Sequence record: MT533174.1
Strand: one strand, 5' to 3'
Source: Escherichia phage CJ20
DNA: 64,000 nucleotides
A program made the position numbers and the translations under genes. Under the pieces are notes generated by a model. That model saw nothing but the letters and a program-made list of their open reading frames with translations. It was not told where the DNA came from and made no database searches. Shown piece after piece: positions 4,300 to 56,646 of the stretch (its first letter is position 1; each line of letters opens with the position of its first letter).

Positions 4300-6606
<2,307 letters not shown>

Positions 6607-6610
<4 letters not shown>

Positions 6611-7482
6611 AATGATACCCTATTTTTTCTTGGCGCTGGAGGTGCTGGGTCAACCGGTACAGGAATATCCTGCGAGTATGTTTGAACGGATTCACCTTGC
6701 CAGTCTTCTTGGTCGACATCTCGCGGAACGGCTTCCGAGTCAACAGATTCGAAATTACCTTCCGGCGCAAGCTCTCTGGAATTTGCAAAGAAGTCAAGAT
6801 AGATAGTACGGATTTCTCCGGCCACTTCTTTAACCGGTGGATATAGCCAACCGTTGACTTCGAACATAATGGACCATTCAAGTCTACGACGGGTCATTGC
6901 ATCACCTTCAATTTGCTCATCCATAGCAATGGACTGAAGCACGATTCTTATATCACGTTCGAATGTAATTTCATTCGTGTAGAGTTCGGTGATAGTTGTA
7001 TTAAAATGTGGCTGGAAGTAAGGCATGATTTGTTCGATAATCTGGAACATATCATCTTGATGCCTTGTATATATTCCAAGCTCAAAAATCATTTTGACCG
7101 GCACCGGAGAATATTGAGATATCTGCTTGCGAGGGTCGTTATTAGCAAATCGCGCCTGTGTGTGATTCTGGAGAGCCGTTTTATATTGCCCGTTATACAT
7201 CAAGTCAACAAGATGTAAGTTCATACGGGGCAGTACGGTCTCGATTTTAGCCTTCTGAGCAGCACGTTCTTGTGGTGACATGTCAGGAGTCGGTGTATTC
7301 TGAATTGCGGTCCATTTTCCAAGCTGCATCATGAATTTTTCTTTTGATGCGTAGGAAATAGGGACCTTAATATATTTAAGTCCAGTGTCTTCTCTGGTTC
7401 TGGCCACTTGTACATGGGAAAATAAATCGCCCATTAAAACGATATAGCGACGCAGAGACGAATTATAAAAATGCCCAAACAA
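6607..7482 (-). CDS. 15: tail sheath stabiliser / tail terminator, T4 gp15-like
   Basis: 291-aa [24 protein letters not shown]... resembling the T4 gp15 N-terminus; the conserved first codon is TTG (plus strand CAA at 7480-7482) with GGAGG 8 nt upstream. Confidence 0.85.
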
Positions 7483-7525
7483 AGTAACCTCCGGGCGCCC
7501 AGTTCGGGCGCATTAATAAATGTAT

Positions 7526-8311
7526 TTATTCATCAAAGAAACTATCGTCAAAGCTATCCTGTTTTGCCTTAGGCGGTGACTCAAGCCCACGACCATTCTG
7601 CACAAAATATGGTTTAACATATTCAGCTGCTTCTGCGTTAATCTCATCAGATTCTGCATAAGGAATATCACTGATATCTGTAAGGCCATCGATATTGTGG
7701 ATTGGTTGCAAATCGAGCTCACTGAATTCTGGAATATTAATACCTTCATTTCGTTGCAATTCGGGTTTAAGCTCTTCTCCGGAGTAAATGTATTTGCTCG
7801 CGGTGATTTTACGGATGGCGTTTTGACCTACCTGATAGAACGGGTCATAAGGCTGTACCCAGGTTATTTCGAACAGACTGTTATCGAGAGGGAAATAAAT
7901 CAAATCCCCTGCAATAGGTTCGGTGCCGTTGCATTGATGTTTAAACAGATTAGGGTTAATCGACACTGTGATTTCATCATTCACAGTCATACCAAATTTA
8001 CTGAAGATGGAACCATCACCCTGATAAGCATCGAACGTATCCAGATAACCAGCAAATTTCCATGCTTTATCAAATTTACTCTGGAGGTCTTCACCGAATA
8101 ACAAATCTGGTTTAACGAATTGTCTTGGGATGTAATAGAGAGACATCCCGCGCATCTGAATACTTTCAGCAACAATAGCATCGGCTAAAGTCTGGGTATT
8201 TTCATGATGCATAAAGTTTACATAAGGGTTCAATATCTCTGTAGCATTGGTATTGTCATACCCGGTCCCGTCTTCGAGCCGAGCGAATAAGTTCGCGTCA
8301 TATGTAGCCAT
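7526..8311 (-). CDS. 14: neck protein, T4 gp14-like
   Basis: 261-aa [21 protein letters not shown]...; position and size match T4 gp14 (256 aa); start shares a base with the gene 13 stop (TAATG). Confidence 0.85.
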
Positions 8312-9249
8312 TAGCCCACCAATATAGGAGTCGGTGCATCCAGCAGGTCAAGTTCTTCGCGAAGACGTTCTTTTTCCATACGAGCTTCTTCAATTAAACG
8401 AACACCATCAACCGTGGTACCACCCGGCATCATCATTCCCTGGTGCTTTGCCAATACGTTGCCGTTAACTTCCTTAACAAGCGCCGTGGCATAGTCTTTC
8501 ACCCAACGGTTGTTGTATGCACCATCTTGAAGTCCAAGGTCCTCACCAGCTCTCATGCCGCTTATTCTGCGTGCAGGGTTATCCCACTGCGCACCAGTGT
8601 TCCACGGATTATCACAATCACCAGAAGCATAACCATAACCCGCCGTATTGCTGGCCATTGCATCAACACCATTAAAGGATTTGGTGTAAACTTCAATTAC
8701 AATCACATCTCCCTGGCGGAAGTTGCCCATAATTTTAAGTTGTTCAGTATCGTCATTATACCAGTAATCTGGAAGCGGAACCATCAGGTCTTGCATCATC
8801 GAACGATATTGCATAAGCTGTGTAAAATAACCAAGGTCTGCACCAAAGGCATTTGGGCCAAAGCTATTACAAGAACTCCCCATTCCACCGTTAATCCCGG
8901 CAAGCCCCAGAACGAAATCTGTGAACCATGGGTATGTTGCCTGACCATCCATCGAAGTTAATGAACCGACGTTGGTACGAATAATCTGTGTTACTGCAAA
9001 AATATTACGACCTTTTAAATCGAAAACACCATCACGGAATTTCTGTTGTGAAACTTCATCATGGCCAATATAAAAAGCCTGATAGCCTTTGTTGTAACCA
9101 TTATAATGATATTCACCATATAATTCTAATGCGCGCTGGATACAATCATAAACCTGTTCGGTCGTGACTTCGATATTCGTGATTGGGGCGCCAAGACGAC
9201 GAAGGATTGCATCTTTTAATTGTTTCGGGTTGTATGATTCAGTTGCCAT
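8311..9249 (-). CDS. 13: neck protein, T4 gp13-like
   Basis: 312-aa ORF between wac and gene 14; size and synteny as T4 gp13 (309 aa). Confidence 0.82.
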
Positions 9250-9267
9250 ATGTTTTCCTCTTTACTG

Positions 9268-9275
9268 TATTTATA
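9268..9275 (-). promoter_or_regulatory. T4-type late promoter (TATAAATA) upstream of gene 13
   Basis: Plus strand TATTTATA at 9268-9275, 19 nt upstream of the gene 13 ATG. Confidence 0.65.
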
Positions 9276-9277
9276 CG

Positions 9278-9296
9278 AAAAAAGGGCCGAAGCCCT
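9278..9296 (-). terminator. rho-independent terminator after wac (hairpin usable in both directions)
   Basis: GGGC-CGAA-GCCC hairpin at 9284-9295, followed on the minus strand by a U-run (plus-strand A-run 9278-9283); located between the wac stop and the gene 13 late promoter. Confidence 0.6.
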
Positions 9297-9301
9297 TTTG
9301 T

Positions 9302-10879
9302 TTATGGTCCAACAGTCACGAATGTCGACAAAAGAACCCATGCATTATCAACAAGCACGTAAGGGAGTCCGTCAGCCGCAGGAGCGACAGGAGGCCTTTT
9401 GGCGAGCTCTGTTTCTAAGGCTGATACTTTACCTTCAAGTTCAGTTATCTTCGTCTCGGCTCCACTGGTGCGCGATTCGATACCATCCACACGTGATACT
9501 AGAGCAGGAATATCACCACCTACGATTTCGGCCCAAGCACCGTCCTGGCGCCCGTAAATCTTCGTATCAGATGGAGCGTCACTAAGCTTAGTCGGCATTT
9601 CATTTACCAGGCCTTCAACAGTCGGGAGAATACCTTTTTCAGCAACAGTCGAACCGTTTGGGTTAGTCCCTTCGATTTGTGATTTAATCGTCAGGATAGA
9701 ACCTTTAAGACCAGATTGGTTGTTACCAATTTCTGCCTGAATATCCTGAATAGCCGCGGCATTTGCGCGACTAGAAGTTTCGACTTCACGCATACGCGGA
9801 ATCAAGGAAGTTGGTGCCGGACTATCACTAATACCCACTGCAACGTTAAGGGCTACAACTTGTCCCTGTAAACCACTGCTTGTATTTTCTCCGATAACAA
9901 CATGAACACCTGTCATGTCATCACGCAACGTTTTTAGACGACCATTAATGGAAGTCGGTTTGGCATCAGTACCAATATCTGTTTCAACTTTCGACAATCT
10001 TGTATTCATACCAGAAGTGGTATTTTCTAAATTTGTTGCCTTGGTTTCCAGAGTCCCGACACGGTTTGCGATACTTTGACCTTGGCCAAAACCAATTGCG
10101 GTTTTGATATTCCCTATATCAGTTTCATTAGTTCCGGCTTTAGCTTCGACTGCAGTTAAACGAGTATAAACAGGAGATTTACCAATACCTTCAGTGCGAG
10201 GACCAAGTTCTTCGCGCATCTCATTTAATTTAATCGCGAGGCCACCAACATCCGAATCATTATAATTATCTTCGAGAATAGTAAGACGACGTTGCGTGGT
10301 TGCAATTGCCGTACTATTATCGATGATAATACGTTTCATCCCGGTGGCATCATTGGTTTCGCCTTCAGGCAACGGGTCGCCATTGATATCTTGGTTTGCA
10401 TAATGACCCATTTCACGCTTAATACGGTTAATATTGGCACGAACGGTCAAATATGGTCCATCTTCCAGTGGGTTATAATAACCAACATCTTCCTGTAATT
10501 CACCGAGATTTGTGCTGGTATCAAGTAAAGCAATATCAGTTTCGGCTAAACCAGTCTGGAGGCTTACAATATTAATACGGTTAGTTTCAATCTGTTGAAT
10601 AACGCTTGCATCTGTAGAAATATCCAGAGCTTCTTTAATCTGGTTAACGCTATCGACAATTTCGTTTACTTTGTCTTTAGTGGTCGCGTCATTCTTTTCC
10701 AGAGTTTCAACGTTGGTCTGTACACCCAAAGCTGCAGCATTAAGGGCACCATCGTGCCCATATTTGGTAGTGGCTGCAGTTAAGCAATCACCATTGCGAA
10801 TCCATTCAATTCGTTTTTGGTTAGCTTCTGGCACACCATCGACAAACGGAAGATTCACTAATTCTAATTTGTTAATCAT
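9302..10879 (-). CDS. wac: fibritin (whisker antigen control), T4 wac-like
   Basis: 525-aa coiled-coil protein; N-terminus ...LPFVDGVPEANQKRIEWIRNG... and foldon-like C-terminus ...GLPYVLVDNAWVLLSTF resemble T4 fibritin; synteny 12-wac-13. Confidence 0.9.
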   Translation of the reverse strand: MINKLELVNLPFVDGVPEANQKRIEWIRNGDCLTAATTKYGHDGALNAAALGVQTNVETLEKNDATTKDKVNEIVDSVNQIKEALDISTDASVIQQIETNRINIVSLQTGLAETDIALLDTSTNLGELQEDVGYYNPLEDGPYLTVRANINRIKREMGHYANQDINGDPLPEGETNDATGMKRIIIDNSTAIATTQRRLTILEDNYNDSDVGGLAIKLNEMREELGPRTEGIGKSPVYTRLTAVEAKAGTNETDIGNIKTAIGFGQGQSIANRVGTLETKATNLENTTSGMNTRLSKVETDIGTDAKPTSINGRLKTLRDDMTGVHVVIGENTSSGLQGQVVALNVAVGISDSPAPTSLIPRMREVETSSRANAAAIQDIQAEIGNNQSGLKGSILTIKSQIEGTNPNGSTVAEKGILPTVEGLVNEMPTKLSDAPSDTKIYGRQDGAWAEIVGGDIPALVSRVDGIESRTSGAETKITELEGKVSALETELAKRPPVAPAADGLPYVLVDNAWVLLSTFVTVGP

Positions 10880-10888
10880 TTTTATTCC

Positions 10889-12424
10889 TTATCTGACCTT
10901 AATAATAAAAAGAATAGACATGGACCATGGGCGGCTTTCATTACCTATCAGACCTTCGCTGTTTAATGTAGTTCGAGAATCACGACTGCCATCGCCATCG
11001 ACTTCATAACCTTCGTTCGTAAAATAAGAACGGTTATCCCAGTCCAAACCTTTACGAGTGCCTGCATAGTTTGAACGAGCTGTGTTACCAAATGCACCAG
11101 CATTATCATGTTCACCAAAACCACCGGCGTGCTTGTGGAAACGGAGTTGTTGTGCCTGTACTGTACCGTGACCATATGAACCAACACCTTGACCCAATTT
11201 AGGTTTTTGTTTGGAATCATTTCCTTTGGCGTTTCTTATATTAATGTTTGTTTCCCATTCCTTCATAGCACCATCGTTAGAGCTGTTGGAACCACGAGGA
11301 AACAATCCACGAAAATCTGGCTTATTACCAGTTGCGCCCCATTTACCACCAACGACATTTCGGAAACCAGCATCACCGACATTACCGCCGTCACAAATTT
11401 CCCAACCAGAAGGAATATTACCAGTTTGACCGCCCCACATAATAATAGTTCCGATTGGCACACTATCTTTTAGTTCGTTACGGGTTACAACATCCTGACC
11501 ATTTCTGCGTAAAGTTCCATTAACGTTAAGAGTTCCATTAATTGTACCGCCCCCAGTCGAAATGACGTTTGCATTATATGCAAGAGCTGTATTACCATCA
11601 CCTGAGCCAACGGTAGTTGTTAATTTAACAACACCAAGGCGACCAGTTGTGCCAGTTCTGGATAAAAGAGTGGACGGAGATAATGCAATATTCGAGTTAC
11701 TTCCCGCAGCTGCCTCGGACGGAGTTGCCAGACGAATAAGACCATTTTGGCTTTGCGTAGAAACGAGTTGTTTCAAGCCAAGCGGAGAAACTGCAACGCC
11801 ATCATTCATTGTCCCCTGCTGAACTTCCGCCGGAGTTGCAATTTTAACAATCCCTTGAACAGTGGTTGTTGCGGTGCTATAAGTTGGAAGTGCAGCCGTG
11901 GCTTTACCGATTGCTAATGAAACCTTCAGAGGAGTCATAGCTGTTGTATCATCAGTTCCGGCTAGCGCAGCCGGTTGGGTTGAAATCTTAATTACACCAT
12001 TGCGGTCTTCAGTAGAAGTGCGAGTATTAAATGTATTATCAATGGATGCTTTAAGACTTGACGGGACAATAGCTGCATCGGTTACTGTACCATCAATAGC
12101 TTCTGCATTGGTTGCGTAACGGGTAATACCAACATATGTTTCGGTAGCTTGTGTCGGGATAGTCAGTCGAGCTTTAAGAGTTTCTGGAGTTACTGCTGTA
12201 TTATTACCGAGACCATCAATAACTTCTTGTTCAGTTGCCAGTCGAATAATACCTGGGACTGCAACAGTTGCTTCTGGGATAAATCCATCAATAGCAATAG
12301 GAGCCAAAGCCCCTAATGCATCTTGAACGTTTGTTACTGTCGGCGAGAATGAAGTTCCCGCCGGGTCAAATGTTTTATATTCGGATTTATCGCTAATATG
12401 TTTTAGCGTGTTAGTCGTTGTCAT
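10889..12424 (-). CDS. 12: short tail fibre protein, T4 gp12-like
   Basis: 511-aa ORF; C-terminal region ...HKHAGGFGEHDNAGAFGNTARSNYAGTRKGLDWDNRSYFTNEGYE... closely matches my recall of T4 gp12. Confidence 0.9.
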   Translation of the reverse strand: MTTTNTLKHISDKSEYKTFDPAGTSFSPTVTNVQDALGALAPIAIDGFIPEATVAVPGIIRLATEQEVIDGLGNNTAVTPETLKARLTIPTQATETYVGITRYATNAEAIDGTVTDAAIVPSSLKASIDNTFNTRTSTEDRNGVIKISTQPAALAGTDDTTAMTPLKVSLAIGKATAALPTYSTATTTVQGIVKIATPAEVQQGTMNDGVAVSPLGLKQLVSTQSQNGLIRLATPSEAAAGSNSNIALSPSTLLSRTGTTGRLGVVKLTTTVGSGDGNTALAYNANVISTGGGTINGTLNVNGTLRRNGQDVVTRNELKDSVPIGTIIMWGGQTGNIPSGWEICDGGNVGDAGFRNVVGGKWGATGNKPDFRGLFPRGSNSSNDGAMKEWETNINIRNAKGNDSKQKPKLGQGVGSYGHGTVQAQQLRFHKHAGGFGEHDNAGAFGNTARSNYAGTRKGLDWDNRSYFTNEGYEVDGDGSRDSRTTLNSEGLIGNESRPWSMSILFIIKVR

Positions 12425-32545: not shown

Positions 32546-32621
32546 GGCCCTGTAGCTCAATTGGTTAGAGCATCCGGCTCATAACTGGCAGGTTTCCGGT
32601 TCAAGTCCGGATGGGGCCACC
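32546..32621 (+). tRNA. tRNA with anticodon CAU (Met, or Ile if the C34 is lysidine-modified as in the T4 tRNA-Ile)
   Basis: Hand-folded cloverleaf: acceptor GGCCCTG/TGGGGCC, D stem GCTC/GAGC, anticodon loop CTCATAA, T arm TCCGG-TTCAAGT-CCGGA, discriminator A plus CC; one mismatch in the anticodon stem. Confidence 0.75.
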
Positions 32622-32698
32622 CGGGGTGTAGCTTAATTGTATAGAGCAACGGTCTTCTAAACCGTAGGTTGTGGGTTAGAATCCCGCCACCCCGACCA
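32622..32698 (+). tRNA. tRNA-Arg (anticodon UCU)
   Basis: Hand-folded cloverleaf with all stems pairing: acceptor CGGGGTG/CACCCCG, D stem GCTT/GAGC, anticodon stem ACGGT/ACCGT with loop CTTCTAA, T arm GTGGG-TTAGAAT-CCCGC, discriminator A and encoded CCA. Confidence 0.82.
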
Positions 32699-47954: not shown

Positions 47955-48314
47955 ATGGTAAGAGTCATAACTTTAGCCATAGGGTTAGTATTTAGCACGG
48001 GAGGAATAGCTTCAGTACAGAGCGATGATAATAATAGCATCATAGAATATGCAACGAGGACGGCCAAAGATTATTGCGCATCAAGCAATGTGGATTGTGT
48101 AATCCAGTTCAGTGCCAAACTCACTGCTGCCTATAAAGACGGTCAAAATGATGTTGAACACACTCTTATGAAAAAGAGTATTTTATCCAACAAATATGAA
48201 AAGAAACTATTTGAAATGGATTGTATTCTGTCGAGTGCCAAATATAAAGCGGCCTGTACCAGTATGGTTGACAGGTTAGTCGATTCCTATAACAGAGGAT
48301 TGAACTCTAAATGA
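47955..48314 (+). CDS. secreted/periplasmic Cys-containing protein, 119 aa
   Basis: ATG 1 nt after the previous stop; signal-peptide-like N-terminus MVRVITLAIGLVFSTGGIASVQS. Confidence 0.6.
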   Translation: MVRVITLAIGLVFSTGGIASVQSDDNNSIIEYATRTAKDYCASSNVDCVIQFSAKLTAAYKDGQNDVEHTLMKKSILSNKYEKKLFEMDCILSSAKYKAACTSMVDRLVDSYNRGLNSK

Positions 48315-48790
48315 TTGTTAACTATATTAAGGGCGATATAGTCGCCCTCTTTCTCGAAGGAAACATCATAGCTCATGGCTGTAATTGTTTCCATACAATG
48401 GGTTCAGGTGTCGCTGGCCAACTGACAAAGGCTTACCCAAAAATTTTAGAAATGGATAAGACATCAACTGAATACGGTTCCCGAGAAAAACTCGGTGATA
48501 TGTCTATCGTTTTTAAACATAAGCCAACTGGATTTGGTATGTGCTATAACCTTTATACCCAGTATGAACCGGGTCCAAATCTGGATTATGGCGCTTTAGT
48601 AAATTGCATGATAGAATTAAATCTACAAGCAGAATCACTTTTGTTCAAGCCTGTGATTTATATTCCCAGGATTGGATGTGGTATTGCAGGTGGTGATTGG
48701 GATAAGGTTTCCCGGTTAATTGATATGTTTACTCCTGATATTGATTTGGTGGTAGTTGATTATGAAAGCACATTATCCACATCCGTTTGA
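48311..48790 (+). CDS. macro domain protein (TARG1/OARD1-like ADP-ribose-binding or hydrolase fold), 159 aa
   Basis: Motifs in canonical macro-domain order: GDIVALFLEGNIIAHGCNC (cf. AHCISxDxxMGAGIA of TARG1), MGSGVAGQL (Gly-rich phosphate loop), IPRIGCGIAGGDWDKV (second loop). Confidence 0.7.
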   Translation: MIVNYIKGDIVALFLEGNIIAHGCNCFHTMGSGVAGQLTKAYPKILEMDKTSTEYGSREKLGDMSIVFKHKPTGFGMCYNLYTQYEPGPNLDYGALVNCMIELNLQAESLLFKPVIYIPRIGCGIAGGDWDKVSRLIDMFTPDIDLVVVDYESTLSTSV

Positions 48791-50595: not shown

Positions 50596-50965
50596 TTTCG
50601 TAACAGGTCGTGGGTCTGAGGTGGATTCATACATTGGGTGGCTATTAGTCTCTTTGGCTTATTTTAAATCCGCCCATCTTGAAACCAAAAGTTACGCCCG
50701 CCATAAAGCTTATGATTTCTACTTCACAGAAATCCAAGGTCCACTCGACCAGTTCAGTGAGCAATGGTTAGGTTACAGCGGGAAACAATACAAAGCTGCA
50801 TTACCGTCCGCCTCGGACTTGCCGAAAGATACAATTTTGTTTTTAGATGAAATGATTAAAAGCTCGGAAAGAGTCTATAAAGTTGTACCCAAGGCTATTC
50901 AATCGACTCTGGACGATATCGTTGGAGTTTTCTTTCAGACTAAGTATCTGTTAACATTAGAGTAA
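50582..50965 (+). CDS. hypothetical protein, 127 aa (at the T4 rI.-1 position)
   Basis: ATG ORF overlapping the rI stop (MKFDDFVTGRGSEVDSYIGWLLVSLAYFK...). Confidence 0.6.
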   Translation: MKFDDFVTGRGSEVDSYIGWLLVSLAYFKSAHLETKSYARHKAYDFYFTEIQGPLDQFSEQWLGYSGKQYKAALPSASDLPKDTILFLDEMIKSSERVYKVVPKAIQSTLDDIVGVFFQTKYLLTLE

Positions 50966-50971
50966 TTCAAA

Positions 50972-50998
50972 AGGTCTGCCTTCGGGTGGACCTTTTTT
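50972..50998 (+). terminator. rho-independent terminator
   Basis: AGGTCTGCC-TTCG-GGTGGACCT hairpin followed by TTTTTT. Confidence 0.7.
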
Positions 50999-51007
50999 CA
51001 TTTAGGG

Positions 51008-51037
51008 GTTTACATCCTCATCAAAAGGGTGTACTAT
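51008..51037 (+). promoter_or_regulatory. T4-type early promoter (PeSL-like cassette)
   Basis: -35 GTTTAC (51008-51013), 18-nt spacer, -10 TACTAT (51032-37), then ...TATCCCATCAACTACTGAGGAGAACACAATG. Confidence 0.5.
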
Positions 51038-51065
51038 TATCCCATCAACTACTGAGGAGAACACA

Positions 51066-51269
51066 ATGAGAATTAAAAATATCAAGATTGATGCAGTTAA
51101 TACTGGTGATGAGGTTGTTATCTATCTTAATGATTATGCAATCTTTATGGACAGTGCCACTGATGAAGAAGTGGTTGAACTCTTACAGAAAGCTCCATTT
51201 GAACTGTGTGAAGAAGATGCTACCCATCTTTCATCAGCAATTTTCTCATTATCATATGTGGTGGAATAA
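51066..51269 (+). CDS. small acidic protein, 67 aa
   Basis: ATG after GAGGAGAACACA (MRIKNIKIDAVNTGDEVVIYLNDYAIFMDSATDEEVVELL...). Confidence 0.55.
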   Translation: MRIKNIKIDAVNTGDEVVIYLNDYAIFMDSATDEEVVELLQKAPFELCEEDATHLSSAIFSLSYVVE

Positions 51270-51505
51270 TGAAACTTACAAATACCATGGTTTCATTGGA
51301 ATATGAAACCAATAATCATATTCTTGAAATTAAGATATTTGATGACAGAAGTATATTTGCTGATTACAGGGGATACAGAATCCGCCTGGAAAAGGAACAG
51401 CTTAAAGATGTTGAGCTTTTTAAAGAAACATTAAAAAGTTGTGGGTGTAAACTGAAAAATACTCAAGTCCAAGAATTAATTTCTACCATCAACAAATACT
51501 GGTGA
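51269..51505 (+). CDS. hypothetical protein, 78 aa
   Basis: ATGA overlap with the previous gene. Confidence 0.5.
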   Translation: MKLTNTMVSLEYETNNHILEIKIFDDRSIFADYRGYRIRLEKEQLKDVELFKETLKSCGCKLKNTQVQELISTINKYW

Positions 51506-51509
51506 TATT

Positions 51510-51692
51510 ATGTTAACTACTGAACAAATTGAAAAAATTATTAAACTCGCCTGGCATATTGAAAATGCATCTAATGACCTGGCAGTGGAATTATGTGAAG
51601 GCTATTCATATTCTGGAATAGAACAGTGTAAGCGTGATTTGAATAGTTCTAAAGCTAATTTGGTTGAGTATCTGAATGAGTTGAAAGAATAA
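51510..51692 (+). CDS. hypothetical protein, 60 aa
   Basis: ATG ORF directly after the previous gene. Confidence 0.45.
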   Translation: MLTTEQIEKIIKLAWHIENASNDLAVELCEGYSYSGIEQCKRDLNSSKANLVEYLNELKE

Positions 51693-51949
51693 TGGCTGTT
51701 GGATTTGCAAAAGATGGTGCTGAACAGTTAGAGATGGAAGCGGTTGTCCAAGCCGCTATCACCCATGCGAGAGCACAAGTTGCAGTTGAAAGGGAGTCTG
51801 CTGAATTCTGTTTTGACTGCGACGAAAAAATTCCTGAAGCGCGGAGACAAGCGATTAAAGGTGTGATATATTGTGTTGGTTGTCAATCAATGCATGATGA
51901 AATTTTTAAACGTGAGCCACGAAACTGTTGGCACAGGAGCATGAGATGA
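51692..51949 (+). CDS. TraR/DksA-family C4 zinc-finger protein, 85 aa
   Basis: CFDC-(17 aa)-CVGC spacing with IPEARRQAIKG between the Cys pairs, the hallmark of the TraR/DksA zinc ribbon. Confidence 0.7.
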   Translation: MAVGFAKDGAEQLEMEAVVQAAITHARAQVAVERESAEFCFDCDEKIPEARRQAIKGVIYCVGCQSMHDEIFKREPRNCWHRSMR

Positions 51950-52040
51950 TTTACTATCTTGAACCTTGGGCTTGGTTAACAATGGCTATAGGGCCTGTTT
52001 TAATTGGTTTATTCTTTTCATGGTTAGCGAGGAAACTGTA

Positions 52041-52256
52041 ATGTTGTATGACCCAAGTGGTAATTCTGAAAATGGTGTGATTGTTCTGGAACCTGAGCAT
52101 CCAGTTGGTGACGTATACCGCCCAGTTGAAGTGTGCGAATGTAATTTTGTTAAAGGTAATACTGGTGGGATTTCCATTGAGCAAGATGATGATGTTATTT
52201 ACCTGGATGCAAGCCAAGTAGAAGCGCTTTATAGTATTTTAAAACATAACCGTTGA
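52041..52256 (+). CDS. hypothetical protein, 71 aa
   Basis: ATG at 52041 after GAGGAAACTGTA (MLYDPSGNSENGVIVLEPEHPVGDVYRPVEVCECNF...); the ORF-track extension from 51966 is rejected. Confidence 0.5.
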   Translation: MLYDPSGNSENGVIVLEPEHPVGDVYRPVEVCECNFVKGNTGGISIEQDDDVIYLDASQVEALYSILKHNR

Positions 52257-52266
52257 GGAACAGAAA

Positions 52267-52827
52267 ATGATTATTGAAACAACTGAATTGTTTGGCGAAC
52301 TGACCGCTGAAGTAGTTAATAACGCAATTGAGCTTTGTCAAGAAGACGATAAAATCGTACTGACTATCGCTGATATTAAACCGCTTTATGATTTAATGGT
52401 TTTGGATAAAGATGAATATCTTAACGGTAGTTTTAGTGGTGTATTTGATATTAACGATGATGTATGCGCTCGCATTTATAAGCACGACGCTGGGTTTAAT
52501 ATTGAAACAGATGAAAAATGTCTGAGCATCAGCGATTCTGATAAATTCTTTGATTGTATTTTCAAACTGTTCCAGGAAGAATGCAAGCCAGAAGTTGAAT
52601 GGAAAGTCCCTGGTCAAGACGCACTGATTCGCTCTAGCGAAACGTTTGAAGGCGATGAAGAGGAATTAGATTATAATACTGAACTGACTGTGCATCAACA
52701 TAACGGCCGTGACTTGTTGTCCATTGTCCAAAGACATGACGGTGAAAGTGAAGTGGTATTTACTAAGGACGAGCTAAAAGTTTTAGTCTCTTATCTGAAC
52801 TCTGTTATCCCAACTATGAACTCTTAA
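52267..52827 (+). CDS. strongly acidic protein, 186 aa (estimated net charge about -28); candidate DNA-mimic-type protein
   Basis: ATG after GAGGAACAGAAA; by my count about 43 Asp/Glu versus about 15 Lys/Arg, spread along the whole sequence (MIIETTELFGELTAEVVNNAIELCQEDDK...). Confidence 0.65.
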   Translation: MIIETTELFGELTAEVVNNAIELCQEDDKIVLTIADIKPLYDLMVLDKDEYLNGSFSGVFDINDDVCARIYKHDAGFNIETDEKCLSISDSDKFFDCIFKLFQEECKPEVEWKVPGQDALIRSSETFEGDEEELDYNTELTVHQHNGRDLLSIVQRHDGESEVVFTKDELKVLVSYLNSVIPTMNS

Positions 52828-52837
52828 GGAAAATATT

Positions 52838-53290
52838 ATGATTATCAATTCAAACTCTTGGCACGTTAAATTACATGACCGTTTTTATGACCGTCATTCT
52901 CGACCACACTCTCTGTGCGCTTATTTCTGGAAAATGGTTTGGGCTTGTTTCGTTTGTGCTATTGTTGCAGGTGGTACGCTTTTTGGATTAACTGTTGCAG
53001 GAGCTAGTGTATTAGAGCATTTCTTTGTATTAAGTACTCCTGTTCTGTTGAGTCTCGGGTTTGTTTTAGGGTTGGTTGCAATAGCTCTTATTATTGCGAT
53101 ATCCATTGGTTTGGCCTTCGGTGCGATGAATTTACACGCGTGGTATGATTTACATAAAGAAGAAAAGGAATGGCAACGTATTAAAGCCAAACGTGAAGGA
53201 AAGGAAATTAAAGAAAACATCGTTATCCAATACATTAAAGCTCGTAAATCTAAGATGTGTCCGGTAATCCATTTTGAGGCGAAGAAATGA
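52838..53290 (+). CDS. polytopic small membrane protein, 150 aa
   Basis: ATG ORF with at least three hydrophobic helices (FWKMVWACFVCAIVAGGTLFGLTVAGA, VLLSLGFVLGLVAIALIIAISIGLAFGA). Confidence 0.65.
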   Translation: MIINSNSWHVKLHDRFYDRHSRPHSLCAYFWKMVWACFVCAIVAGGTLFGLTVAGASVLEHFFVLSTPVLLSLGFVLGLVAIALIIAISIGLAFGAMNLHAWYDLHKEEKEWQRIKAKREGKEIKENIVIQYIKARKSKMCPVIHFEAKK

Positions 53291-54297
53291 GAACAGTTAT
53301 GAAAGGCTACTTCGGTAGCCATCTTTATGGAACAAGTACTCCGGAATCTGATGTCGATTTTAAAGAAATCTTTGTTCCTCATCCGCGAGATATCCTGCTC
53401 GGGACCGCGATGAACCATACCAACCTGAACACGAATAACACGGCTACCAAAAATACAAAAGATGATGTTGACCATGAACTTTATAGTCTGAAATATTTCT
53501 TTAAACTGGCAGCCGAAGGCGAAACCGTTGCTCTGGACATGATTCACACACCGGCTGACCTGGTTGTCAAATCCGATTTACCAGATGTATGGAAGTTTAT
53601 CCAGGATAACCGTTCACGGTTCTATACAACTAACATGAAAGCCTATTTGGGGTATGTCCGTAAGCAAGCTTCTAAGTATGGTGTTAAAGGTTCTCGATTG
53701 GCTGCACTGCGTGGTGTACTGGCAATTGTTAACCAGATTCCTGAACAGTGGGTCGATTATCAAGAAGATGGTTCTACTAAGCAACGACGTACTAAGGTAG
53801 AAGATATCAAACACCGGCTCCCTGAAAACGAGTTCTGTGAATGGGTATTTCATAACCATGAGAAAACAGGTCCTCAAACATTCTATACTGTTCTCGGTCG
53901 TAAATACCAAACTACCCTGTCTTTAATCGAGCTCAAGCAGTCTCTGAATAAACTTGATGCCGAATATGGTGAACGTGCTCGTAAGGCTGAAGCCAATGAA
54001 GGTATTGACTGGAAAGCTCTGAGTCATGCTTATCGTGCCGGATACCAGTTGAAGGAAATCTATCAAACTGGTGACCTCCAATATCCTTTACGTACAGCAC
54101 CGTTTATCCTTGAAATCAAACAAGGGCTTCATGCTTTTAAAGATGTACAGGCCGAACTTGAAGCTATCGTTGATGAAGTCGAAACTAATGCCATCTGGGC
54201 CGCTAAGAATGGTATGCCTGAGAAGGTAGACATGAAGTTCTGGGACAAGTTCGTTGAAGAGGTATACCTTGACAACCACAATTCCTATTATCGTTAA
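53287..54297 (+). CDS. Pol-beta-superfamily nucleotidyltransferase-like protein, 336 aa
   Basis: N-terminal hG[GS]x(10)DhDh signature (YFGSHLYGTSTPESDVDF) typical of minimal nucleotidyltransferases, followed by a helical domain of about 300 aa; ATGA overlap with the previous gene. Confidence 0.7.
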   Translation: MRTVMKGYFGSHLYGTSTPESDVDFKEIFVPHPRDILLGTAMNHTNLNTNNTATKNTKDDVDHELYSLKYFFKLAAEGETVALDMIHTPADLVVKSDLPDVWKFIQDNRSRFYTTNMKAYLGYVRKQASKYGVKGSRLAALRGVLAIVNQIPEQWVDYQEDGSTKQRRTKVEDIKHRLPENEFCEWVFHNHEKTGPQTFYTVLGRKYQTTLSLIELKQSLNKLDAEYGERARKAEANEGIDWKALSHAYRAGYQLKEIYQTGDLQYPLRTAPFILEIKQGLHAFKDVQAELEAIVDEVETNAIWAAKNGMPEKVDMKFWDKFVEEVYLDNHNSYYR

Positions 54298-54303
54298 ATT
54301 CTA

Positions 54304-54327
54304 AGGACCCTTCGGGGTCCTTTTTTA
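54304..54327 (+). terminator. rho-independent terminator
   Basis: GGACCC-TTCG-GGGTCC hairpin followed by TTTTTT. Confidence 0.75.
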
Positions 54328-54341
54328 TTTTAAAAAAAGTA

Positions 54342-54371
54342 GTGTACAACCAGATGGTCATGAGGCATAAT
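54342..54371 (+). promoter_or_regulatory. T4-type early promoter (PeSL-like cassette with conserved leader)
   Basis: -35 GTGTAC (54342-54347), 18-nt spacer, -10 CATAAT (54366-54371), then GATTCCATACTGAGTTACCAAATAAAAACGGAGAATAAAATG. Confidence 0.6.
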
Positions 54372-54410
54372 GATTCCATACTGAGTTACCAAATAAAAAC
54401 GGAGAATAAA

Positions 54411-54617
54411 ATGTTAGAATTAATCAAAGCTGCTGGTGAAAAAGGTCTGATGGTTAACACTCGTGACCCTGAACAACGTCAAGCATTTGGCGAGTTAAAA
54501 GCCAAAGGTCTGGTTAAAGCATCCCTTGGTATTGGTAATGCTTTGCGTGTGACTTTGACCCCTGCAGGTAAAGCAATGTTCTTCCCTAAACCATTACCAA
54601 AACGTCGTCGCAAGTGA
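54411..54617 (+). CDS. small basic protein, 68 aa
   Basis: ATG at 54411 after the conserved leader (MLELIKAAGEKGLMVNTRDPEQRQAF...LPKRRRK). Confidence 0.55.
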   Translation: MLELIKAAGEKGLMVNTRDPEQRQAFGELKAKGLVKASLGIGNALRVTLTPAGKAMFFPKPLPKRRRK

Positions 54618-54623
54618 GGAATT

Positions 54624-54926
54624 ATGAAAAAGTATGAACTTGACATGATTGAGGCATGTCTGAAATCTGCTGACCATTTTAAGTTGAAAATGCACAAGTT
54701 AAGAGGAATGGTCAAAACTCCAGAAGAGAAGAAGCGATACGCTCTAAAGGAGAAATGTAAAGCTCTTATCATGATGGATAAGCTGCAAATGGTCGCCGCA
54801 GAAGCCCACAGGACGCGTAAAGCTGAGGCCCTTGGTGTTTATATGGCAGAGCAGCTCCATCGCGCACAGCAAGCCGTTAAGAGCGTCTGGTTCAGCGGTG
54901 AAAATACTGAAAGAACTTTTAATTAA
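54624..54926 (+). CDS. hypothetical protein, 100 aa
   Basis: ATG after GAGGAATT (MKKYELDMIEACLKSADHFKLKMHKLRG...). Confidence 0.55.
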   Translation: MKKYELDMIEACLKSADHFKLKMHKLRGMVKTPEEKKRYALKEKCKALIMMDKLQMVAAEAHRTRKAEALGVYMAEQLHRAQQAVKSVWFSGENTERTFN

Positions 54927-54929
54927 ATG

Positions 54930-54959
54930 TTGTACATAGTATGGGGATAGACGTATAAT
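54930..54959 (+). promoter_or_regulatory. T4-type early promoter with stem-loop (PeSL-like cassette with conserved leader)
   Basis: -35 TTGTAC (54930-54935), 18-nt spacer, -10 TATAAT (54954-54959) within GGGGATAgacgTATAATGTTCCC, then CATACTGAGTTACCAAATACTGGAGAATAAAATG. Confidence 0.6.
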
Positions 54960-54995
54960 GTTCCCATACTGAGTTACCAAATACTGGAGAATAAA

Positions 54996-55520
54996 ATGGA
55001 CGCAAAATCAATCTTTAATCTGATTAATTACAATAATGGTAATTTTAAATCAGAAGCACAAAGTAAGTTCTTTAATGATGTTGCTTGTGCGGGTGAGATT
55101 ACAGTATCAGGTGGTCAAACTTATAAAAACGCCTGGAACTGGATTGTGACTGTTGATTCAGTTGGTATTGTTGATGTGTATAAAAACACCAACAAAAACC
55201 GCTCTTTGTTCTGGTCAAGAGAGACTAATGCAGAATATCAAGCGGCAAGAGCGAAGAAAAATATGCCTACTGAATCTGATGTACAAAACATCAAATCAGA
55301 TATCCAATATTATGATGGTCTGATTGCTGAACAACAAGCGGTGCTTGATAAGTTCAATGAAATCAAGGCGTGTAAAGAGATTCCTGAATTCATGAGGGAA
55401 TCAGTTAATGAACAATACAATCTCACTTCAGAGCGTATTGAAACCTATACCAAACAAAGAGCAGAGCGCCAGGTACTCCTTCAGAAGTTTGAAGAGCGTT
55501 TAAAGACGGTTCTCGCATAA
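54996..55520 (+). CDS. hypothetical protein, 174 aa, C-terminal coiled coil
   Basis: ATG after the conserved leader (MDAKSIFNLINYNNGNFKSEAQSKFFNDVACAG...). Confidence 0.6.
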   Translation: MDAKSIFNLINYNNGNFKSEAQSKFFNDVACAGEITVSGGQTYKNAWNWIVTVDSVGIVDVYKNTNKNRSLFWSRETNAEYQAARAKKNMPTESDVQNIKSDIQYYDGLIAEQQAVLDKFNEIKACKEIPEFMRESVNEQYNLTSERIETYTKQRAERQVLLQKFEERLKTVLA

Positions 55521-55546
55521 ACGCTTTATACCAAGGATGGTATAAT
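55517..55546 (+). promoter_or_regulatory. probable early promoter (weaker -35)
   Basis: -10 TATAAT at 55541-55546 preceded by CCAAGGATGG (the same spacer motif as the promoter at 57549); the -35 region ATAAAC matches poorly. Confidence 0.35.
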
Positions 55547-55583
55547 GGTTCTGACCTTTGATTAATCTATTGAGGAAATTATT

Positions 55584-56429
55584 ATGTCGCAAGCAATTAA
55601 TGAAATTCGTTCTGAAGTTAAAAAAGTTGTTAAATTTAACAGCATTCCAAGCACTAAAGATGTGGTTTTAAAGGTTCTATATATGATGTGGGATAAGTTC
55701 AATGTTTGTACTAATTCTGCTGAATTCACTAAAATCTTTGAAAAGACCAAAGGCCTTCTTACATTAGAAGACCGAGTCATGAAATCTCTTCATCGTTCAG
55801 GTATGTTGTCTCGTGCTAATGCTAAAATTCTACTTAAAAATTATAACAAAGGCTATGACCTTTATGGTCGTGCGATTAGCACCATGACGTTTGATGAAGT
55901 GGTTAAAGACCTTTGGAAGAACCAACGACGTTTACTGGCTCTTGGTGCTCGTTTGGCAAGCGGTCAAGATAAACAAATGACCTTTAAAACCAATAATTCT
56001 TTAGATTATAAACTATTTAATGTTATTAAAGGTCAAAATGAAGGCGAATACAGTATTTCTTCTTTTAGTGGATGTCAATACGAAAACTGGAAATTCCACC
56101 TCCGTTTGGCTTTGTCTGAACTCGAACATCATGGGGTTCTTACCTTTTATGATGTTAAAACTGGAGGCGTCCAGCGTATTAAACTATGTCAAATTAAAGA
56201 CCGAGTTGAAGTCAGTCCTTCAGAACAAGCTCCTAAAATGGAACAGGTTCCAGTGCGAAGCAATGAAAAATATTCAGAGCAAATTGAGCTTTTCACTAAA
56301 CAGATTGAAGAACTTAACATCACCATCCAGCAGCAAGATGATGAAATTTTCCGCCTGACAGGATTGAACAGTGCAGCGAAAGCTGAACGTCAGAAACTGA
56401 TGAACGTTATTGAATTGCTTAAGGATTAA
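55584..56429 (+). CDS. hypothetical protein, 281 aa, C-terminal coiled coil
   Basis: ATG after GAGGAAATTATT (MSQAINEIRSEVKKVVKFNSIPSTKD...). Confidence 0.65.
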   Translation: MSQAINEIRSEVKKVVKFNSIPSTKDVVLKVLYMMWDKFNVCTNSAEFTKIFEKTKGLLTLEDRVMKSLHRSGMLSRANAKILLKNYNKGYDLYGRAISTMTFDEVVKDLWKNQRRLLALGARLASGQDKQMTFKTNNSLDYKLFNVIKGQNEGEYSISSFSGCQYENWKFHLRLALSELEHHGVLTFYDVKTGGVQRIKLCQIKDRVEVSPSEQAPKMEQVPVRSNEKYSEQIELFTKQIEELNITIQQQDDEIFRLTGLNSAAKAERQKLMNVIELLKD

Positions 56430-56430
56430 T

Positions 56431-56646
56431 ATGACCATTTTTATTATCAGTATTATTTTTGGTTATCTTTTGACGGGATTTATTACTACCCTATTGCTCC
56501 ACAAGTTTGATAGTCCCTACGAAAGTGGGGACGAGTATGATGCAGTGTTCACTACATTTGCATGGCCTTTGTTTTGGATAATCGCTGTTATAATGTTTGT
56601 GACCTGGCCTTTTGCTAAACTCTATGAAAAATTATTTGGATTATGA
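56431..56646 (+). CDS. small membrane protein, 71 aa, two predicted TM helices
   Basis: ATG at 56431 after AAGGATTAAT (MTIFIISIIFGYLLTGFITTLLL...FAWPLFWIIAVIMFVTWPF); the ORF-track start at 56410 lies inside the previous gene. Confidence 0.55.
   Translation: MTIFIISIIFGYLLTGFITTLLLHKFDSPYESGDEYDAVFTTFAWPLFWIIAVIMFVTWPFAKLYEKLFGL

Follow-up and report, generated by a model that had tools for sequence, protein, structure and literature searches.

Does the nrdC.11 gene of T4-like phages encode a nucleotidyltransferase (NTase) that acts on RNA ends, and if so, in which pathway would it take part? The question is raised by a gene in a 64,000-nucleotide stretch of Escherichia phage CJ20 (sequence record MT533174.1; the whole stretch is called the window here), where an open reading frame (ORF) for a protein of 336 amino acids is present as placed by an original prediction made from the DNA letters (Table 1). 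The DNA of the region is 90 to 95% identical to that of T4-like Gaprivervirus coliphages (VR7, VR20, VR25, and relatives), and by its sequence the window comes from a T4-like phage of this genus. Based on identity and gene order, we recognize the gene as the orthologue of phage T4 nrdC.11: its product shares 99% of its amino acids with NrdC.11 of VR7 and VR25 and 82% with that of T2, and the T4 (NP_049709; gene at 55435-56445), VR7, VR25, VR20, T2, RB69-like, and other Tevenvirinae proteins represent the same gene of the same 336 amino acids in the same position, from the mobD.1/membrane-protein genes to nrdC.9-nrdC.6. The syntenic VR7 gene, in this very interval, is annotated nrdC.11 (“nucleotidyltransferase, similar to bacteriophage T4 NrdC.11”), and RefSeq already labels the T4-type protein “nucleotidyltransferase.” The gene therefore adds no new kind of element: its family is known, its phage group is well studied, and it is already annotated. 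The explanation that we favor, with some reserve, is that it encodes an RlaP enzyme with an intact active site that would add nucleotides to RNA 3'-OH ends within phage tRNA repair.

The protein almost certainly belongs to the RlaP family. It matches the Pfam RlaP model (PF10127, “RNA repair pathway DNA polymerase beta family”) with 43.2 bits at a cut-off of 23 (E=4.9e-11), the alignment being confined to residues 8 to 134 (profile positions 25 to 142 of 249), i.e., to the NTase half, and it matches PHROG 388, “nucleotidyltransferase,” with an E value of 1.3e-132. The relatives point to the same family: in a clade alignment (A2) of 73 sequences from phages, bacteria, and archaea, with identities down to 35%, PF10127 was matched individually by 72 of the 73 members (best E=2.2e-19). 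A search of a collection of 5.8 billion proteins returned 2694 homologues at E<=1e-3 (top E=4e-226), and 792 cluster representatives were found at E<1e-30 in an exhaustive search, with a length of about 320 amino acids and an end-to-end alignment with the window protein in nearly every case. Given these thousands of homologues and the strong Pfam and PHROG scores, an ORF of this kind is far beyond chance. A function for the family has reportedly been predicted since 2016, the year of what is said to be the founding RlaP paper, by Burroughs and Aravind.

Residues 8 to 25 (YFGSHLYGTSTPESDVDF; nucleotides 53308 to 53361) hold the Pol-beta signature, GS-x10-DxD, exactly as the original prediction had described it: G10-S11, ten residues, and D22-V-D24. 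G10, D22, and D24 are conserved in 100% and S11 in 98% of the 73 sequences, and the positions that are invariant across the alignment are G10, G15, S21, D22, D24, N56, D62, Y131, R230, K243, H247, R250, P267, and G280. The original prediction had also called for a third catalytic acid downstream and had taken its absence as the sign of a degenerate domain; such an acid is present, D62 being Asp in 73 of 73 sequences, with Asp at D60 in 72 and at D84 in 70 of them. Because D62 is invariant and its strand position in the structure model fits the canonical Pol-beta topology, we assign it as the putative third carboxylate. As far as these residues tell, the active site is fully intact throughout the phage clade, and NrdC.11 is very likely to be a working catalyst. 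The most conserved block of the C-terminal half, D241-W-K243-x3-H247-x2-R250, is a candidate NTP- or RNA-binding helix.

The predicted structure agrees with this picture. An AlphaFold2 (AF2) model built on the 73-sequence alignment reached a mean predicted local distance difference test (pLDDT) score of 93.8 and a predicted template modeling (pTM) score of 0.79. Its strands (residues 2-9; 23-30, with D22/D24; 44-48; and 61-67, with D60/D62/E64) are as expected for the Pol-beta topology, and the window protein combines a Pol-beta NTase fold with an hG[GS] motif and three conserved, presumably catalytic Asp residues. The NTase core spans approximately residues 1 to 95 and includes helices 68-77 and 80-86; it is followed by helical segments 99-150 and 213-307 and a terminal helix, 316-335. 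The helical domain of roughly 300 amino acids that had been expected behind the signature is thus mostly helical, as stated, but comprises only about 240 residues and is interrupted by a beta-rich insertion at about 154-208. The model matched other phage “nucleotidyltransferases” over its full length, with template modeling (TM) scores up to 0.72, and Foldseek found only weak NTase matches in the PDB (E>=0.012). Searching the PDB by sequence, whether with the protein itself or with a full-length or NTase-only profile, gave nothing significant, the best being a motif-level match to the terminal uridylyltransferase (TUTase) MEAT1 (E=1.5).

What such a site might act on is suggested by the characterized members of the family, so that the substrate is less opaque than the original prediction had it when stating that it could not be read from the sequence: the RlaP threshold is passed, and characterized RlaPs act on RNA 3'-OH ends (PMC12776372). 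In this study, a bioRxiv preprint of December 2025 by Carruthers, Fatma, and Huang, the Pseudomonas enzymes PfRlaP and PaRlaP add one or two nucleoside monophosphates to an RNA 3'-OH, using any NTP and also dATP, prefer Mn2+ or Co2+, and are inactive on DNA and protein (PMC12776372). Of the ends in a mimic of a cleaved tRNA, they favor the 3' end that belongs to the 5' half; they cannot use 3'-phosphate ends, and they partly rescue the aminoacylation of a tRNA short of one anticodon-loop nucleotide (PMC12776372). In the crystal structure of PfRlaP, the NTase domain is followed by a helical domain, and the last helix folds back against two helices of the NTase domain so that a cleft forms (PMC12776372). 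The window protein resembles both enzymes in its Pfam family, in the order of N-terminal Pol-beta NTase, C-terminal helical domain, and terminal helix, and in the three invariant Asp residues; it differs from them in the beta-rich insertion, which half of its own clade also lacks. By analogy, NrdC.11 would most likely extend an RNA 3'-OH by one or two nucleotides without a template, probably with Mn2+, and we regard an RNA 3' end as its probable substrate.

Since the characterized RlaP enzymes belong to another cluster of the family, we examined the linkage to RNA-repair genes inside the NrdC.11 clade itself. We compared 77 viral loci (51 T4-like and 26 divergent) and 80 bacterial or archaeal loci, all with full-length relatives at 34 to 99% identity to the window protein; ORFs within 5 kb were called and clustered, and recurrent ones were identified by Pfam and by phmmer with seed proteins. 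An RNA-repair gene lies within this distance in 16 of the cellular loci (14 with a ligase) and in 6 of the divergent viral ones. The linked genes encode Pnkp, Hen1, RtcB, Rnl1, a PF09414 ligase, and Ro, and many are contiguous with the RlaP gene on the same strand, next to relatives at 34 to 50% identity. One order is Hen1, bacterial Pnkp, and RlaP with gaps of 0 to 11 bp (loci L140, L144, L146, L152, and L154); others are Ro/TROVE-RlaP (L096 and L125), Ro-RtcB-RlaP-Hen1 (L117), and a kinase and RlaP followed at some distance by RtcB (L113). RlaP stands before a T4-type Pnkp and Rnl1 in a Bathyarchaeota metagenome-assembled genome (L084), before a PF09414 RNA ligase and Pnkp in a phage, where the stop and start codons overlap (L076), and behind an HD/kinase gene and Rnl1 in two phages (L077 and L078). 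This association with RNA ligases, including RtcB (L113, L117, L141, and others), is a further likeness to PfRlaP and PaRlaP. Because a genome typically has a given repair gene once or not at all, an adjacency of about 20% is probably beyond chance, an argument from gene copy number. The NrdC.11 clade itself, and not only the distant cluster 1a of the characterized enzymes, is therefore operonic with RNA-repair genes elsewhere.

The T4 enzymes Pnkp and Rnl1 are the textbook case of a virus mending RNA that has been damaged by a host suicide nuclease. When an RloC-type nuclease has removed a nucleotide, plain religation gives a dead tRNA. Davidov and Kaufmann found in 2008 that RloC excises the wobble nucleotide and proposed that this lesion defeats T4 Pnk/Rnl1 repair (PMC2610378); from that time dates the question how, or whether, T4-type phages cope with such nucleases. 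Iyer et al. noted in 2021 that RlaP and RNA ligases have closely matching distributions among jumbo phages and predicted that RlaP restores, ahead of ligation, what nucleases like RloC have removed (PMC7824862). An RlaP of the NrdC.11 type is thus the obvious candidate for the gap-filling step, as the literature already proposes. In the pathway that we envision, a host anticodon nuclease would cleave a tRNA, and an RloC-type nuclease would in addition remove one nucleotide; Pnkp (pseT) would turn the broken ends into a 3'-OH and a 5'-phosphate, NrdC.11 would put the lost nucleotide back on the 5' half, and Rnl1 (rnlA) would close the break. Healing by Pnkp would have to precede NrdC.11 because RlaP cannot use 3'-phosphate ends, and sealing by Rnl1 would suit the product because Rnl1 needs a 3'-OH and a 5'-phosphate, as the RlaP reaction leaves them. 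RlaP products are compatible with 5'-phosphate ligases, and the RtcB-linked RlaPs face an incompatibility between 3'-OH and 3'-phosphate (PMC12776372), a problem that the order Pnkp, NrdC.11, Rnl1 would avoid. We infer the RNA substrate of the phage enzyme, its position between Pnkp and Rnl1, and the nuclease whose damage it would counter; the natural targets would be tRNAs cleaved and trimmed by RloC-type anticodon nucleases. That NrdC.11 works against nucleotide-excising nucleases in vivo is a possibility that we put forward tentatively, with less conviction than its action on RNA ends. If it does, T4 repair would become a three-enzyme pathway whose chemistry, a 3'-OH product handed to a 5'-phosphate ligase, would be more self-consistent than that of the RtcB-linked bacterial version.

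Several observations weigh against this proposal. T4 NrdC.11 falls into cluster 5 of the PF10127 sequence similarity network (SSN), labeled “RlaP of unknown function,” whereas PfRlaP and PaRlaP are in cluster 1a (PMC12776372), and the experimental work on RlaP covers bacterial enzymes. Because the Pfam model aligns only with the NTase half, the C-terminal, substrate-binding half is not demonstrably common to the RlaP family at the sequence level. All 51 T4-like loci, the window included, are without an RNA-repair gene within 5 kb, and so are 64 of the 80 cellular loci as far as recognized repair neighbors are concerned. The local context lends a repair role no support, the immediate neighbors being of unknown function. 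Unlike in the linked bacterial loci, the phage gene does not stand beside a ligase, its presumed partner being the 5'-phosphate ligase Rnl1; neither Pnkp nor Rnl1 was found in the 64-kb window. Such partners do exist in the genus, as VR7 encodes both pseT (134013-134921) and rnlA (137315-138451), about 80 kb from nrdC.11, the same distance as in T4 (pseT, 134002-134907; rnlA, 136340-137464). Untemplated addition would moreover give the correct base only sometimes, and a modified wobble base is not restorable in this way. Finally, the nrdC.11-mobD.3 region of T4 can be deleted with the phage remaining viable in laboratory hosts (PMC9825161), which fits an accessory counter-defense function but many other roles too.

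A peculiarity of NrdC.11 is that conserved and exchangeable segments alternate along its sequence. We surveyed mosaicism in 119 close T4-like homologues, defining sequence types by single linkage at 80%. Both the NTase core (amino acids 1-140) and the middle helix segment with the DWKxxxHxxR block (213-262) form a single sequence type, and two segments, here called V1 and V2, are variable, V1 holding the beta-rich insertion and V2 helices 271-307 (Table 1). V1 is only 36 to 44% identical where its flanks are 85 to 98% identical, and in the 73-sequence alignment its occupancy at amino acids 151-170 is 0.45 to 0.51, i.e., about half of V1 is missing in approximately 50% of the wider clade. One homologue, for example, is 98% identical to the window protein over amino acids 1-140 but 42% over 141-212, and another is 99% identical over 1-262 but 60% over 263-310. 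The two segments assort independently, and as some type pairs occur in all four combinations, they evidently recombine; the window protein has a combination of its own, V1 type 0 with V2 type 2. V1 and V2 could be specificity modules, surfaces that escape an inhibitor, or weakly constrained regions. It is tempting to speculate that the T4-type clade has been redeployed as a targeted weapon or counter-weapon, with V1 and V2 steering 3'-end addition to particular host or defense RNAs or oligonucleotide signals (cleaved tRNAs, antitoxin RNAs, or HalB-type oligonucleotides may be examples), or evading host inhibitors. We consider such a redeployment improbable; if it were true, NrdC.11 alleles would help decide which defense systems a T4-like phage overcomes. 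The two recombining segments are candidate specificity determinants.

Against RNA 3'-end addition in tRNA repair, the reading that we favor, four other explanations have to be weighed, none of which has positive family-level support. One is that NrdC.11 repairs or completes the 3' (CCA) acceptor end of tRNAs, be they of host or phage origin, and thereby functions like a CCA-adding enzyme, a class that the original prediction had listed. Class I and II CCA-adding enzymes and poly(A) polymerases (PF01743) indeed share with RlaP the template-independent addition to RNA 3' ends, a Pol-beta-superfamily active site, and a part in tRNA integrity; when offered total E. coli RNA, the two Pseudomonas enzymes label tRNAs and rRNAs of full length (PMC12776372); and the phage has tRNA-Met and tRNA-Arg genes of its own (32546-32698). 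We nevertheless hold this to be unlikely, since Pfam finds no PolyA_pol/CCA-adding head domain (E<=1), the RNA-binding domains of these enzymes are missing as well, and characterized RlaPs accept all four NTPs and show no specificity for CCA. In the annealed tRNA mimic, PfRlaP prefers the 3' end at the anticodon break and disfavors that of the acceptor side (PMC12776372). In addition, a true PolyA_pol-family enzyme (Pfam E=4e-20 in L064) is encoded 4 kb from the RlaP homologue in phage contigs L061 and L064, so that the two, which coexist there, are not redundant. An anti-defense or signaling NTase, which would make or extend a nucleotide signal or decoy in the manner of CD-NTases or of Hailong HalB, or would tag defense RNA, is less probable still. 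It would fit the setting of the gene, which is early, accessory, and deletable and lies in a hyperplastic region (PMC9825161), and the two recombining hypervariable cassettes could reflect an arms race, but the protein matches no SMODS or CD-NTase domain in Pfam and no PADLOC defense model (E<=1), characterized RlaPs require an RNA primer and halt after one or two additions (PMC12776372), and the operons of the NrdC.11 clade in cells and other phages join it to RNA ligases and end-healing enzymes.

A third class from the original prediction, an MNT-like protein adenylyltransferase with a HEPN/KNTase-C-like bundle that would AMPylate a host HEPN toxin or carry a HEPN RNase of its own, finds an echo in the NCBIfam MntA model, but this match is at motif level (E=0.055) and covers 18 residues with 13.3 bits, far under the cut-off of 60; no NCBIfam model scored above its cut-off. 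We looked upon the helical domain as a possible HEPN RNase and dropped the idea for want of an Rx4-6H motif: the conserved helix reads D-W-K-x3-H-x2-R, with no Arg 4 to 6 residues before H247, and KNTase-type enzymes generally carry a helical bundle behind their NTase core. No HEPN gene occurs among the ORFs adjoining nrdC.11, and E. coli proteins were not labeled by PfRlaP or PaRlaP (PMC12776372), all of which makes this reading very unlikely. More generally, HalB (PDB 9dbh), 3c18, ANT(4'), and MNT share 10 to 13% identity with the window protein, with no family-level match, and act with other partners or in other contexts: HalB makes protein-primed oligo-dA signals, ANT modifies antibiotics, and MNT AMPylates a HEPN toxin, none of them being tied to RNA ligases. 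None of the candidate classes offered by the original prediction (CCA-adding, CD-NTase-like, MNT/HEPN) thus turned out to be right. The remaining alternative is a degenerate, noncatalytic protein of NTase fold with a structural or regulatory role. The gene is dispensable in laboratory hosts (PMC9825161); yet G10, S11, D22, D24, and D62 are invariant or nearly so in 73 sequences from phages, bacteria, and archaea, and the NTase core is the best-conserved part of the protein, with its single sequence type among the T4-like homologues, so that we give this explanation hardly any weight.

How nrdC.11 is likely to be expressed can be read from its surroundings. It closes a run of eight ORFs on one strand (51066 to 54297), which are separated by -4 to +10 nucleotides except for one gap of 91; the nrdC.11 start codon shares bases with the stop of the membrane-protein ORF before it (ATGA), and GAGG lies 9 to 12 nucleotides 5' of the ATG. 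The strong terminator that had been predicted at the gene end is there: an 8-bp GC-rich stem (AAGGACCC/UUCG/GGGUCCUU) with a UUCG loop and a T6 run begins 5 nucleotides past the TAA stop codon and folds with -14.2 kcal/mol (z = -3.0 against shuffled sequences). So is the PeSL cassette that had been expected next, PeSL denoting a stem-loop plus an early promoter (PMC4122927): the stem-loop of the terminator is followed by TGTACA-N17-CATAAT, which has one mismatch per hexamer to the T4/PST promoter consensus TTTACW-N17-TAYWAT (PMC4122927) and would serve the following genes, not nrdC.11. Composite terminator-promoter architectures of this kind are known in T4-like phages (PMC2839356, PMC4122927). 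The -10 hexamer and leader of this promoter are repeated at 54931-54983 with 88% identity, so that stem-loop, early promoter, and repeats are all found at a boundary of variable content, as for a PeSL. The slot just 3' of nrdC.11 differs indeed between phages, holding nrdC.10 (AAA-ATPase-like, with weak Pfam matches) in T4, three small ORFs in VR7, and one small ORF in the window, which is consistent with PeSL-mediated gene shuffling. This argument rests on the position and repetition of the sites and not on their number because promoter-like sites are no more frequent in the region than in shuffled sequence (21 against 17.6 expected). A second PeSL upstream, with a 12-bp stem-loop terminator (50969-50996) and TTTACA-N17-TACTAT (51009-51037), fits the same consensus and is the probable start of the unit; neither MotA-box middle promoters nor TATAAATA late promoters were found in 50900-54400. 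The sequence thus fits the original prediction that nrdC.11 is the terminal gene of its transcription unit, a compact one that would extend from the upstream PeSL to the terminator; the unit is apparently early, judging by its promoter consensus.

Table 1. Features of the nrdC.11 locus in the window
Feature	Coordinates	Strand	Basis
Upstream PeSL, 12-bp stem-loop terminator and promoter-like site	50969..51037	+	sequence; fit to T4/PST consensus
nrdC.11 orthologue, RlaP-family (PF10127) Pol-beta-type nucleotidyltransferase	53287..54297	+	ORF, Pfam, PHROG 388, VR7/VR25 identity, AF2 model
Predicted catalytic motif G10-S11...D22-x-D24 (helix-turn motif and two metal-binding Asp on strand 23-30)	53314..53358	+	conservation, sequence
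D60-V-D62 on strand 61-67, with putative third carboxylate (D62 codon, 53470-53472)	53464..53472	+	conservation, AF2 strand
Variable cassette V1 (amino acids 141-212)	53707..53922	+	7 sequence types among 119 homologues
Most conserved C-terminal block, D241-W-K243-x3-H247-x2-R250	54007..54036	+	K243/H247/R250 100%, 84% mean identity
Variable cassette V2 (amino acids 263-310)	54073..54216	+	19 sequence types among 119 homologues
Intrinsic terminator, stem-loop half of the downstream PeSL (stem-loop, 54303-54322)	54303..54330	+	sequence, RNA fold
Early-promoter-like site, promoter half of the downstream PeSL	54343..54371	+	sequence, repeat copy

Another stem-loop lies within nrdC.11, 18 nucleotides into the gene over the codons for G-Y-F-G-S-H, where a perfect 6-bp stem encloses a UUCG tetraloop (GGCUAC-UUCG-GUAGCC, 53305-53320). 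We rejected a regulatory role for it, since it is intact in only 16 of 49 T4-like relatives, and some of those that have lost it still encode the same peptide; the hairpin is probably incidental. Downstream of the gene, the two copies of the promoter-plus-leader repeat (54343-54395 and 54931-54983) enclose ORFs 54411-54617 and 54624-54926.

Of the eight neighboring ORFs scanned against PHROG, only a DksA-like zinc finger and a membrane protein could be given an identity; the others are of unknown function. The zinc-finger ORF (51692-51949, +; PHROG 54, E=2e-20) lies within the presumed early unit that holds nrdC.11, the remaining ORFs of which fall into PHROGs of unknown function. About 4.5 kb 5' of nrdC.11, a Tk.4 orthologue encodes a macro-domain protein (48311-48772, +; Pfam Macro, E=5e-8), and members of its protein cluster are encoded no more than 5 kb from the RlaP gene at 17 T4-like loci, 3 divergent viral loci, and 1 cellular locus. 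The literature ties macro domains to the processing of ADP-ribose cyclic phosphate during RNA 2'-phosphate removal (PMC7824862), but a functional tie between this gene and nrdC.11 is speculative. Farther upstream, the tRNA-Met (CAT) and tRNA-Arg (TCT) genes stand side by side on the plus strand. Phage tRNAs are a possible bypass of tRNA-targeting defenses.

Some further neighbors recur outside the T4-like phages. The cellular loci (L082-L161) lie on large chromosomal contigs, whether of bacteria (Desulfobacterales, Nitrospirota, and Alphaproteobacteria) or of some archaea; their RlaP relatives are 34 to 50% identical to the window protein, and in four of these loci a ResIII/DEAD helicase gene neighbors the RlaP gene. 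A NAMPT gene (NAD salvage) lies within 5 kb of the RlaP gene in six divergent viral loci. In the phage contigs L061 and L064, each about 230 kb long, the region 4850-10957 encodes the PolyA_pol-family (CCA-adding-like) enzyme mentioned above, an HD phosphohydrolase, and P-loop kinases by the RlaP homologue; with a T4-type Pnkp about 9 kb upstream, this island resembles an extended RNA-maintenance cluster.

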